DNA of 58,788 nt from a virus (lineage: Duplodnaviria; Caudoviricetes), in IMG/VR virus record IMGVR_UViG_3300007094_000198, positions 1 to 58,788 of that record; one strand, given 5' to 3'. Made by a program: the position numbers and the translations under genes. Position 1 is the stretch's first letter. Every line of letters begins with the position of its first letter. The notes below the pieces were generated by a model. That model saw only the letters and a list, made by a program, of their open reading frames with translations. It did not search any database and was not told the DNA's origin. Below are positions 37,786 to 40,771 of this stretch, in pieces.

Positions 37786-38424
37786 TTATTCGTAAAACGG
37801 TGTTAAAAGACTCGGGGAATCATCACTATAGAAATTACCACTCTCGTTAACGTATAGCTTAATTTGCTCACATCTAGCATTTGGATGCATATCTAGTGTT
37901 ATAACTGCAGGACAATCACTTAAAGGAAAAAACTGGCCAGTGCTCTTTTCATAAGTAGTGACGAGCGCTCGTATAATATTATCTATCTCCACTCTATATG
38001 TCTCATCTTTATCTCTATTCTTTTTCGGGGTAAGCTTTATGCTTTCATGTATAGGTAAATAAAAAATAATATCGTATAACTTCAACGTCTCAGCAGCTAT
38101 TGTCTTACTCGTACGTATAAAATCATCAGATACCTTACCGTTTGCATTTAACCATAGAGAATACGCAATATTATCTATAACACAACGATCAAAAACCACA
38201 TTGGTCTCTCCAGTTGACAGGCATCCCTGTACTTCATCAACTAAAGCGTTTAAAATTACACGTTGACTCTCCTCAGTACCCTTTTTATTAAGCTTTAACT
38301 TTTTCTCTTGTATTAAATCCCTGTAAGTTTTTTTAGGTAAATTATACATTGGCCATTTAGTTAAAAACTCCTGTATTAATGTAGATTTACCTACAGACTG
38401 AGACCCCATGAATGCAATTTTCAT
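37786..38424 (-). CDS. P-loop nucleotide kinase (AAA_28/dNMP-kinase-like), second copy
   Basis: GSQSVGKST, FDRCVIDNIAY, YDIIFY. Confidence 0.75.
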   Translation of the reverse strand: MKIAFMGSQSVGKSTLIQEFLTKWPMYNLPKKTYRDLIQEKKLKLNKKGTEESQRVILNALVDEVQGCLSTGETNVVFDRCVIDNIAYSLWLNANGKVSDDFIRTSKTIAAETLKLYDIIFYLPIHESIKLTPKKNRDKDETYRVEIDNIIRALVTTYEKSTGQFFPLSDCPAVITLDMHPNARCEQIKLYVNESGNFYSDDSPSLLTPFYE

Positions 38425-38466
38425 AAATACATTTATCTCGTATACAACCTTAAGTCAAGAAATGTC

Positions 38467-38480
38467 TCTAGCGCTCAACA
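38467..38480. repeat. 14-bp inverted repeat, copy in the hsp20 3' UTR (TCTAGCGCTCAACA)
   Basis: Exact reverse complement of 39014-39027; also sits inside a local GTCTCT/AGAGAC hairpin. Confidence 0.85.
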
Positions 38481-38494
38481 GAGACTAATTCTTA

Positions 38495-38968
38495 TTAATC
38501 AACGACGATATCTACGTCAGTGATCTCCGGTTGAATTACAGGGACAACTACTCGCAATAAGCCATCCTTGTAACTTGAACTAATTTTTTTAATGTTAATG
38601 TTTTCATTTAATCTAAAAGTCATTTGCCCGCTACGCTGACTAATACCTTTTTTGACATATGAATTATTTTTTTCACTATCTTCTTTACTGACGTTAATAT
38701 TGAGTCTACCGTCTCTAACCTTAACGTCAATATTCTCTTTACCGATGCCAGCCAGTGCAACCTCAATAACATAGTTTACAGGCTCATTATTCTCATTATG
38801 AGTCGTAAGTACATTATACGGGTATACTGCCCCAGGTACATCAAACGCTCGATCAATTTTATCGAACGCACTTTCAAGCCAACTATCGTTAAACAGAGCG
38901 GGGAGTTGGCGTAAAACCCTCTCTGTGGACGAGAAGTGTCCAGGTGTTAATGTAGTTAATGTTGTCAT
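38495..38968 (-). CDS. Small heat-shock protein Hsp20
   Basis: YPYNV, IEVALAG, KGISQR, SSYKDGLL.V alpha-crystallin pattern. Confidence 0.92.
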   Translation of the reverse strand: MTTLTTLTPGHFSSTERVLRQLPALFNDSWLESAFDKIDRAFDVPGAVYPYNVLTTHNENNEPVNYVIEVALAGIGKENIDVKVRDGRLNINVSKEDSEKNNSYVKKGISQRSGQMTFRLNENINIKKISSSYKDGLLRVVVPVIQPEITDVDIVVD

Positions 38969-38979
38969 ATTTTTATTTT

Positions 38980-38997
38980 CTCCTTTTTAAAAGCGAG
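38980..38997 (-). promoter_or_regulatory. ROSE-like RNA thermometer hairpin over the hsp20 Shine-Dalgarno
   Basis: mRNA CUCGCUUUUAAAAAGGAG: UCGCU pairs with AGGAG leaving a bulged G. Confidence 0.65.
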
Positions 38998-39013
38998 TTG
39001 TTATTCATAGCCT

Positions 39014-39027
39014 TGTTGAGCGCTAGA
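39014..39027. repeat. 14-bp inverted repeat, copy at the 5' end of the hsp20 leader (TGTTGAGCGCTAGA)
   Basis: Exact reverse complement of 38467-38480; just downstream of CATAAATA (39035-39042, minus). Confidence 0.85.
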
Positions 39028-39052
39028 ACAAAATTATTTATGCTATCAAACT

Positions 39053-39093
39053 AAAAAAAAGCCACCTCTAAATGGTATTTTAGAGATGGCTTT
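39053..39093 (-). terminator. Intrinsic terminator after nrdA
   Basis: GCCATCTCTAAA-loop-TTTAGAGGTGGC followed by T8. Confidence 0.85.
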
Positions 39094-39115: not shown

Positions 39116-40771
39116 TTACGACTCACATGACTTACATGTTAAAATACTTCTAGCTAGTTCTTGTGCGGGATTAGCGGAGCGCTGATAATAAAGGGATTTA
39201 ATGCCTTGCTCCCAAGCAAAGATCATTAACTCATTTACTTCTTTCGGCTTAGTGTCTGGTGGTATCATTATATTCAATGATTGCCCTTGATCTATATGCT
39301 TTTGTCTTTGTGCAGCTTGAATAATAATTTCTTTTTGAGATATCTCGCCAAACGTCTTAAAGACGTCTTTTTCAGCTTGCTCAAGAAAATCTAAATGCTG
39401 CACACTCCCGCCTTTTACAAGAATAGACTTCCAAGTCTCATCATCGTCTTTATGTTTTTCTTTTAAAAGCTTTTTAAGATACGGGTTTTTAAATGTAAAT
39501 TTACCTTTTGCTAAATCTTTAACAAAATAGTTGGAATTGAGAGGTTCTATACTAGGAGACACTTGACCAAGTATAAAGCTCGAAGATGTAGTTGGAGCAA
39601 CAGCAAGTGTTGTAGTGTTTCTTCTTTTATCTGTAGAGTTCTTATATATCGGCGCTTCACCAAAAAGTTTAGCAAGCTCTTTAGTAGCTATATCCGCTCT
39701 ATCTCTAATAGTTTTCCAAATTTGGTTATTTAGCATCTTAGCTTCCATTGATTCAAACCCGATCATTCTTAATTGAAGCAGAGAATGCCATCCAAGCGCA
39801 CCTAAACCGAGAGCTCTTTGAGAAACAGCAAACCTTCTAGGCGCTTCCATGAATTTTATGTCTTTTGTTTTTTCAATAAACTCTGACATAACTGCGTCAA
39901 GGAAATAAATTATAATTTCTACAGCATCAGTATCCTTCCAATCATCCCAACGCTCTAAATTCATTGACGATAGATCACAAACAAAAGACTCGTCCTCTGA
40001 ATTCGAAAGAAATATCTCACTACACAAATTACTATTATTAATTCTCAGTCCTTTTTCTTTATAGATTTGCGGCGCTTGATTATTAGCGTTATCACTAAAA
40101 AATATGTACGGGTAACCAGACTCAAAACGCTTTTTAATAACTAATCCCCAGATACGTCTTGCATCCTTATCTCCATCAACCATCTTCTTCATCCATTCAT
40201 CGGAAACACATACACCAATAGAAAGATCTTGTATCTCATTACCCTCTGAACGTATTTTTAAAAATTCTTCAATATCCGGATGATCAATTGGTAAGTAAGC
40301 AGCAAACGAACCCCTGCGTACATTTCCCTGAGACACTACATTCATGAGTTTATTGTAAAGCTCCATAAAATGCACGGAACCTGTGGACTCTCCACCAGAA
40401 GATATAGGTGTCCCACGACCTCTTAAAGCACCAAAATAAGCTGAAGTACCCCCACCACCTGCTGTCATAATACCTACCTCTGCTACTTTATGCATGATAC
40501 ACTCAAGTGTGTCGCAAATATACGAACCGAAACATGAGATGGGTAATCCACGCTTACGTCCAAAATTACTCCATATCGGACTTGCAAGAGAATAAAAACC
40601 TCTATGCATATAATCTTCAAATTTATCCGCAAACCCCTCCTTACCGAGATATCTTTCAGCAGTCTCTGCAATATCACGTATTCTCTGCTCAGCTGTTTCT
40701 CCTTCTATAAGATACCCCCTTTCAAGAAATTTTCGTGAATCCTTATTAAGCCAGTAAATATCTTTATGCAT
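39116..40771 (-). CDS. nrdA: Class Ia ribonucleotide reductase alpha subunit (short, no ATP-cone)
   Basis: SP, PISCF, GGG, QGNVRRG, SNLCSEI, CDLSS, APTTSSS, DQGQS, LYYQR, C-terminal CKSCES. Confidence 0.95.
   Translation of the reverse strand: MHKDIYWLNKDSRKFLERGYLIEGETAEQRIRDIAETAERYLGKEGFADKFEDYMHRGFYSLASPIWSNFGRKRGLPISCFGSYICDTLECIMHKVAEVGIMTAGGGGTSAYFGALRGRGTPISSGGESTGSVHFMELYNKLMNVVSQGNVRRGSFAAYLPIDHPDIEEFLKIRSEGNEIQDLSIGVCVSDEWMKKMVDGDKDARRIWGLVIKKRFESGYPYIFFSDNANNQAPQIYKEKGLRINNSNLCSEIFLSNSEDESFVCDLSSMNLERWDDWKDTDAVEIIIYFLDAVMSEFIEKTKDIKFMEAPRRFAVSQRALGLGALGWHSLLQLRMIGFESMEAKMLNNQIWKTIRDRADIATKELAKLFGEAPIYKNSTDKRRNTTTLAVAPTTSSSFILGQVSPSIEPLNSNYFVKDLAKGKFTFKNPYLKKLLKEKHKDDDETWKSILVKGGSVQHLDFLEQAEKDVFKTFGEISQKEIIIQAAQRQKHIDQGQSLNIMIPPDTKPKEVNELMIFAWEQGIKSLYYQRSANPAQELARSILTCKSCES

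Follow-up and report, generated by a model that had tools for sequence, protein, structure and literature searches.

Covarying complementarity between the leader and trailer of a phage hsp20 gene points to a message closed end to end

The analysis concerns the small heat-shock gene hsp20 in the virus record IMGVR_UViG_3300007094_000198, a fragment, 58.8 kb long, from an uncultured phage (the whole stretch of 58,788 nucleotides is called the window in what follows), in which the hsp20 unit is read on the minus strand. Two segments that bracket the gene, 39027-39014 in its leader and 38480-38467 beyond its stop codon, are exact reverse complements over 14 nucleotides (nt), just as an earlier note made from the sequence alone had stated. 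This complementarity is conserved with compensatory changes among related phage loci, and an alternative local hairpin at the 5' end covaries as well. On the evidence of these sequences, the hsp20 message very probably closes on itself, end to end, and we regard it as highly likely that the pairing of leader and trailer at the RNA level is real and selected.

Conservation and covariation of the two arms

The sequence of the 14-mer occurs in just these two copies in the whole record, even when up to two mismatches are allowed, and it forms the sole exact 14-mer inverted repeat of the window with arms at most 1 kb apart. In order to judge the chance of such a match, we compared the window with 300 dinucleotide shuffles, which held a mean of 0.63 such repeats. 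Since 37% of the shuffles held at least one, the length of the repeat is not significant by itself. The value fell to a mean of 0.017, with 1.3% of the shuffles holding a repeat, when at least 7 G+C were demanded, a criterion that was picked after the repeat had been seen. Additionally, the arms occupy both short spacers of one gene, and hsp20 stands out most strongly when the window's 76 open reading frames (ORFs) are compared: its leader/trailer duplex is the strongest, at -34.6 kcal/mol (mean -15.0 kcal/mol, standard deviation 5.6), and it alone has an exact leader/trailer run of more than 6 nt. Taken singly, the locus is suggestive, not conclusive, of more than a chance match in AT-rich DNA. 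The weightiest point is that 49 of 66 related loci keep the match with compensation; because of this conservation the match is more than chance, and we count that explanation, whose probability we consider negligible, as already refuted.

The related loci were collected by protein-guided scans that returned 10, 44 and 62 loci from overlapping collections and gave 82 distinct flank pairs, of which 66 (110 nt upstream and 70 nt downstream) were kept and 16 with truncated flanks were left out. The energies of the leader/trailer duplexes were bimodal, with 49 loci at -24 kcal/mol or below and 17 between -6.7 and -17.3 kcal/mol. In the loci of the strong class the helix sits at the homologous place, and although the sequences of the boxes are very diverse among loci, their complementarity is retained. 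An example is L001, which at 80% protein identity is the closest distinct relative: a C-to-T change in its 5' box is matched by a G-to-A change in its 3' box.

For the analysis of covariation we used an alignment of 41 non-redundant loci, obtained from the 49 paired loci by removing seven duplicate arm pairs and one further locus, L112. The placement of the latter in the strong class rested on a spurious pairing that arose because its ORF is frameshifted; past its true stop codon, its arms are the same as those of L050. A long-range structure of 25 pairs was built from per-row duplex votes. In this alignment 85.4% of 972 cells are paired, both sides have changed in 22 of the 25 pairs, and 120 cells show double changes, compared with 38.1±5.5 in shuffles (0/500). 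When the arms were slid against each other as a control, 33.6-53.3% of the cells were paired. RNAalifold, which was not given the voted structure, returned the outer 13 pairs as an enclosing helix. Moreover, the 5' arms pair with their own 3' arms at a mean of -31.7 kcal/mol and with those of other loci at -18.1 kcal/mol, the own 3' arm being the best partner in 23 of the 41 loci, among the top three in 34 and among the top five in 37. The alignment of hsp20 flanks that the earlier note had proposed is thus in favour of its suggestion that a long-range 5'-3' pairing closes the message.

In a tree of the Hsp20 proteins, for which five cultured cyanophage and pelagiphage proteins served as the outgroup, the paired state is found on every deep branch of a clade with 100/100 support that reaches down to 37% protein identity. 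All 17 unpaired loci, which encode 16 distinct proteins, fall into a single nested clade (support 99/97), so that one loss of the 3' complement is implied. None of the six cultured phages Mosig, P-HM2, P-SSM2, S-T4, S-CRM01 and S-SM2 has a 3' complement, and the longest exact leader/trailer match in them is 5-8 nt.

The predicted helix of the window is larger than the exact 14-nt core that was first seen: it comprises 23 bp between the full arms (39030-39008 with 38487-38463; -33.4 kcal/mol), with two 1-nt bulges and a continuous stretch of 14-15 bp. In the 41 loci the helix has a median of 25 bp (range 15-35) and contains one to three bulges or internal loops. Both the minimum-free-energy structure and the centroid of the 576-nt RNA include the closing helix (z -4.49). 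A role of this helix as a thermometer was considered and rejected, because the modelled pair probability of its 14-bp core stays at 0.96 or above from 10 to 70 C; the coupling to temperature that had been suggested for the long-range pairing is not borne out by the model.

Local hairpins, leader and layout of the unit

The features of the locus are collected in Table 1. The 5' arm of the long-range helix can also be folded into a local 5'-terminal hairpin (leader hairpin I), in which 88% of the cells are paired across the alignment, seven of the nine pairs have changed on both sides, and 34 cells show double changes, compared with 12.5±2.6 in shuffles. At one position the local pair is G·U, A-U or G-C and never mismatched, and the same base is part of a G-C or A-U pair in the long helix. 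Both the local and the long-range state thus appear to be maintained, and a two-state design is plausible because the competing 5' hairpin covaries as well. By eye, without folding or counting, the hairpin can be recognized in the hsp20 leaders of four of the six cultured cyanophages and pelagiphages, partly in that of S-T4 and not in that of P-HM2. On the 3' side, the GTCTCT/AGAGAC hairpin described in the earlier note is present as well; a simple terminator scan gave it seven pairs (three of them G-C), a loop of 8 and the tail ATTTCTTGAC with five T of eight, and it is terminator-like. Its vote-based counterpart in the alignment was supported by 10-11 of the 41 rows, too few for further counting.

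Table 1. Predicted features of the hsp20 unit and its neighbours in the window.
Feature	Coordinates	Strand	Remarks
Upstream ribonucleotide reductase large-subunit gene	39116-40771	minus	Pfam Ribonuc_red_lgC
Intrinsic terminator-like hairpin ending the ribonucleotide reductase gene	39058-39093	minus	15 pairs, T-run; bounds the hsp20 unit on its upstream side
Promoter-like element CATAAATA (-10-like or T4-late-like)	39035-39042	minus	Separated from the 5' arm by 7 nt
5' arm of the long-range helix	39008-39030	minus	23 nt; exact 14-nt core TCTAGCGCTCAACA at 39027-39014
Local 5'-terminal hairpin (leader hairpin I)	39001-39031	minus	Predicted -8.0 kcal/mol, z -2.6
Leader hairpin II, ROSE-like	38980-38997	minus	UCGCU opposite AAGGAG, bulged G; predicted -3.1 kcal/mol
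hsp20 coding sequence	38495-38968	minus	157 aa; Pfam HSP20, E 3.6e-16
Covarying hairpin within the hsp20 coding sequence	38878-38910	minus	7-bp stem, 19-nt loop
3' arm of the long-range helix	38463-38487	minus	25 nt, two 1-nt bulges; exact 14-nt core 38467-38480
Local 3' hairpin (38464-38485) with T-rich tail	38454-38485	minus	Terminator-like; predicted -11.7 kcal/mol
Downstream gene, AAA_28 / thymidylate-kinase-like	37786-38424	minus	Own promoter-like element; downstream limit of the hsp20 unit

The leader extends over 38969-39030, with 45 nt, including AAGGAG, between the 5' core and the start codon; the start site itself is placed by its presumed spacing from the promoter. A promoter had been noticed before the leader and described as late-promoter-like. 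A promoter-like element does precede the 5' arm immediately in all 41 loci, and its class is less certain than its presence, the element being -10-like or late-like in the window and clearly of the sigma-70 type in some relatives. At the other end, the exact 3' core begins 14 nt and the full 3' arm 8 nt past the stop codon (38497-38495), and across the loci the extended 3' arm begins 1-21 nt (median 4) past the stop. The stretch from the stop codon to the 3' arm holds no terminator; a terminator-like site lies at the arm or beyond it.

Downstream of the 5' arm, the leader contains the sequence UCGCU, a few A or U residues and the AAGGAG of the Shine-Dalgarno (SD) site (38980-38985). A U(U/C)GCU sequence opposite the SD site defines the ROSE-like thermometers of small heat-shock genes (PMC3669281). 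UCGCU or UUGCU together with an SD site was found in all 49 loci of the paired class, and the motif was seen by eye in five of the six cultured leaders (all but that of P-HM2). In this hairpin 90.7% of the cells pair, with little covariation. A search of the window region against Rfam with E values up to 10 gave five hits at chance level and no ROSE family. A corresponding search of 16 related and cultured loci gave a single ROSE match, that of the S-SM2 leader to ROSE_3 (24.9 bits, cut-off 43). As the window's leader does not reach the gathering scores of the ROSE, ROSE_2 and ROSE_3 models and covariation is slight, it is called ROSE-like by its motif only. The modelled mean pair probability of the SD hairpin falls from 0.96 at 10 C through 0.79 at 37 C to 0.58 at 50 C. 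This hairpin may be a better candidate for temperature sensing than the long helix.

In the unpaired clade (L002-L004, L006, L009, L016, L020, L021, L024, L032, L060-L063, L067, L069 and L072), the loss of the 3' arm went together with that of the U(U/C)GCU motif and of the SD site: an SD site is present in none of its 17 loci and a motif match in one, which lies within hairpin I and is probably due to chance. Hairpin I persists in this clade, which has also acquired a strong canonical terminator. Because these losses and gains belong to one evolutionary event, they do not amount to a statistical correlation.

A further hairpin lies within the coding sequence, over the codons for RQL...D(S/N)W; 98.6% of its cells are paired and 50 show double changes, compared with 15.1±7.0 in shuffles (0/500). 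Six to seven of its seven pairs are kept in all 23 distinct arm pairs of the 66 loci, in the paired and the unpaired class alike, and synonymous Gln and Leu sites covary with the Ser/Asn codon.

The DNA polymerase of the record is about 31% identical to the enzymes of Pelagibacter phage HTVC008M and of T4-like cyanophages; at this level of identity the label T4-like, under which the phage had been placed, is valid for the superfamily and not for a closer kinship. A nucleotide search with the region among 50,697 phage records gave no match. The neighbours of the hsp20 unit are diverse, comprising at least 15 upstream and at least 25 downstream protein clusters, which suggests that whatever the unit does is intrinsic to it. 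In the window, the promoter-like element of the downstream AAA_28 / thymidylate-kinase-like gene (38422-38458, minus strand) consists of TTGACT, a 16-nt spacer and ATAAAT; the latter ends 6 nt before the ATG, there is no SD site, and the gene is a candidate for a leaderless mRNA. In one relative (L100), the hsp20 unit has tRNA genes immediately on its downstream side, at 718-788 and 1218-1289 (Rfam tRNA, 55.5 and 52.3 bits). Upstream of the unit in many relatives (L002, L004, L009, L014, L062, L063 and others), a terminator stem-loop runs directly into GTTGAAA or GTTGACA, after which come about 17 nt and (G)ATAAAT. This arrangement of terminator and early promoter resembles the elements of T4-type phages known as PeSLs; the window has no -35 element at that spacing.

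Among public data, four metatranscriptome-labelled runs, from four studies, contain contigs that match the coding sequence of hsp20 at window positions 38510-38938; they are 151-261 nt long, five of them with 95-99% and one with 90-95% identity. In six public RNA runs, 7-13% of the sampled sequence words were present. The contigs are compatible with expression of hsp20 in freshwater, with DNA carry-over being possible.

Possible roles of the pairing

We propose that hsp20 would be a self-contained, probably monocistronic expression unit, whose mRNA carries hairpin I at its start and the terminator-like hairpin at its end. The two end hairpins, being mutually reverse-complementary, could zip into one helix and so loop the message of about 575 nt. 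The local hairpins would fold first, during transcription, and the 3' one would aid termination in this lineage; the released mRNA would then shift to the more stable closing helix, in which the 5' terminus and the 3' end are buried. Such a helix would limit the access of a 5'-end-dependent endonuclease and of a 3' exonuclease and would in this way set the rate of decay or processing. This scheme presumes where the transcript ends lie, in which order the folds form and how RNases are affected. By analogy with the hbs mRNA of Bacillus subtilis, discussed below, we give about even chances to the proposal that the end-to-end pairing sets the decay or processing of the hsp20 mRNA, and likewise put at roughly one half the probability that stabilisation or control of decay is its main effect.

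Several observations weigh against this proposal or against the pairing on which it is built. The tested structure was derived from the same sequences in which it was counted, the cells are not independent events, and A·C mismatches are present (40 cells). The 3' complement is dispensable, as 17 of the 66 loci and all six cultured cyanophage and pelagiphage hsp20 genes do without it. The RNA contigs of the four runs lie inside the coding sequence and may derive from DNA; because they are confined to that part, they are uninformative on the untranslated regions (UTRs) and the ends. Moreover, the local hairpins alone would protect both ends, so that an end-to-end complementarity is not obviously needed for protection, and translation may keep the inner part of the helix partly open, as it lies within the reach of the terminating ribosome.

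The arms might act instead as DNA, as paired protein sites, inversion sites or, as the earlier note had offered as its alternative, terminal repeats of a mobile hsp20 cassette. The diversity of the genes beside the unit would suit this explanation, as would the shuffling of genes by T4-type phages through promoter/terminator cassettes, the PeSLs (PMC2839356 and PMC4122927). Several signs, read from the sequences, nevertheless favour selection acting on the sense-strand RNA. On that strand G·U cells exceed A·C cells (96 vs 40, and 38 vs 9 in the well-aligned outer helix), and the arms accept bulges, indels and free sequence variation, which are ill suited to a site recognized by a protein. The conserved unit reaches past the 5' arm to include the promoter in 41 of 41 loci, and since this conserved promoter lies outside it, the arms are not the termini of the unit. 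The inverted state of the segment was found in none of the 41 loci, promoter, arm, SD site and ATG following in one order throughout. The idea that the 3' element carries a mirrored promoter on the antisense strand was rejected, as a loose motif fitted 7 of 41 loci there, compared with all 41 on the sense strand. The unit contains no transposase or invertase, the window has no flanking direct repeat, and the record holds two copies only. Terminal repeats of a cassette are therefore a poor fit, and we consider a function at the DNA level highly improbable. Another explanation is that the 3' element does no more than terminate hsp20 and arose when the leader hairpin was duplicated in inverted orientation; its complementarity would then be historical or a side effect, and the pairing itself would have no function. 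The 3' hairpin is indeed terminator-like, a T-rich tail stands behind the arm in 19 of the 41 loci against a background of 18%, and the inverted similarity extends at times into the A/T-rich flank. An unselected match of 14-25 nt would decay, however, and the arms instead change together down to 37% protein identity; the tail is missing in 22 of the 41 loci; and five deep-branching loci (L048, L050, L104, L105 and L106) have a separate, stronger canonical terminator beyond the arm, so that the 3' arm persists in loci where another element is the terminator. On the two latter grounds, a role of the 3' element in termination alone was rejected, and the explanation as a whole is very unlikely.

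Two further possibilities accept the closing helix and differ in what it would do. It could be a processing stem for RNase III, an end helix of about 25 bp made to be cut, like the stems that flank rRNAs, and the cut would trim the hsp20 mRNA from longer transcripts or trigger its decay. RNase III substrates comprise about two helical turns, which matches the predicted size of the helix, 23 bp in the window and a median of 25 bp among the loci (range 15-35, with one to three bulges or internal loops). As neither of the local hairpins, with 6-10 bp, could serve in this way, such a role would explain why complementarity of the ends is selected. The continuous stretch of 14-15 bp in the window is short for it, though, the conserved bulges could equally be antideterminants, and the cleavage is a prediction; we regard this role as unlikely. 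Alternatively, the mRNA might be bistable and close itself, its co-transcriptional hairpins meeting through their complementary loops and zipping up to about 25 bp. The switch could then work as a kinetic timer or a heat-driven ratchet, or the loop could be a prokaryotic "closed loop" that returns terminating ribosomes to the start site; the 5' arm ends some 25-35 nt before the SD site, as estimated from the leader sequences. This last proposal seems to us rather doubtful. If it is true, the closing helix and the ROSE-like SD hairpin together would amount to a two-layer RNA control of the supply of a phage chaperone.

Comparison with known systems

The literature search gave no description of 5'/3' complementarity or of a ROSE-like leader in phage hsp20 genes, in agreement with the earlier note, which knew of none. 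In PMC3827213, which deals with the small heat-shock proteins of cyanophages, the words thermometer, ROSE, UTR, promoter, untranslated and upstream are all absent.

[quoted passage not shown] The hbs mRNA shares with the phage locus fully complementary 14-nt segments in leader and trailer, near the terminator, in the mRNA of a small gene, and a separate terminator follows the 3' arm in the five deep-branching phage loci, as it does in hbs. The two cases differ in that the 5' segment of hbs sits downstream of two leader hairpins and not at the 5' terminus, and in that hbs is a host gene for which phylogenetic covariation is not reported. Unlike that of hbs, the predicted phage helix reaches about 25 bp, takes in the 5' as well as the 3' terminus, has two local hairpins as competitors and occurs across a phage gene family.

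A second case is that of icaR in Staphylococcus aureus. Pairing of its two UTRs reportedly promotes cleavage by RNase III, and its 3' UTR is said to mask the SD site; the SD site of phage hsp20, by contrast, lies outside the long-range helix. In PMC3868564, the 3' UTR of icaR is described as pairing with the 5' UTR of the same mRNA, which controls the fate of that message.

The leader also resembles the ROSE-like leaders of Pseudomonas ibpA (PMC3669281), which are short small heat-shock leaders of about 60 nt with two hairpins, a hairpin I and a 3'-proximal one whose U(U/C)GCU pairs imperfectly with the SD site. It differs from ROSE thermometers in that it falls below the Rfam models and in that its hairpin I is also complementary to the 3' UTR. 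PeSLs, as PMC2839356 and PMC4122927 describe them, are dispersed direct repeats with a terminator stem-loop and an early promoter, and serve as points of DNA recombination. A terminator stem-loop followed by a promoter is likewise present upstream of hsp20, in a unit that occurs in many genomic contexts. The hsp20 repeat, unlike PeSLs, is inverted, has two copies, is confined to hsp20 and changes in a compensatory manner; the 14-mer was considered as a PeSL and rejected as one, the upstream arrangement of terminator and promoter being a different element.

Cyclisation sequences and 5'-3' kissing loops also join RNA ends in RNA viruses, such as flaviviruses and plant viruses with 3' translation enhancers, and loops can nucleate the pairing. 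These serve genome replication and cap-independent translation in eukaryotic hosts, whereas hsp20 belongs to a DNA phage and its mRNA is of the bacterial type. For bacterial-type mRNAs, end-to-end pairing has been described in very few cases, one by one (hbs and icaR), none of them with broad evolutionary support. The hsp20 family offers 41 non-redundant natural "compensatory mutants", a control clade without the 3' arm and outgroups with the 5' hairpin only. It suggests that the hsp20 genes of phages spread as whole expression units with RNA-level control of their own, including a ROSE-like leader, and it makes testable what the closure of the ends does for a prokaryotic mRNA, be it in stability, processing, termination or ribosome recycling.

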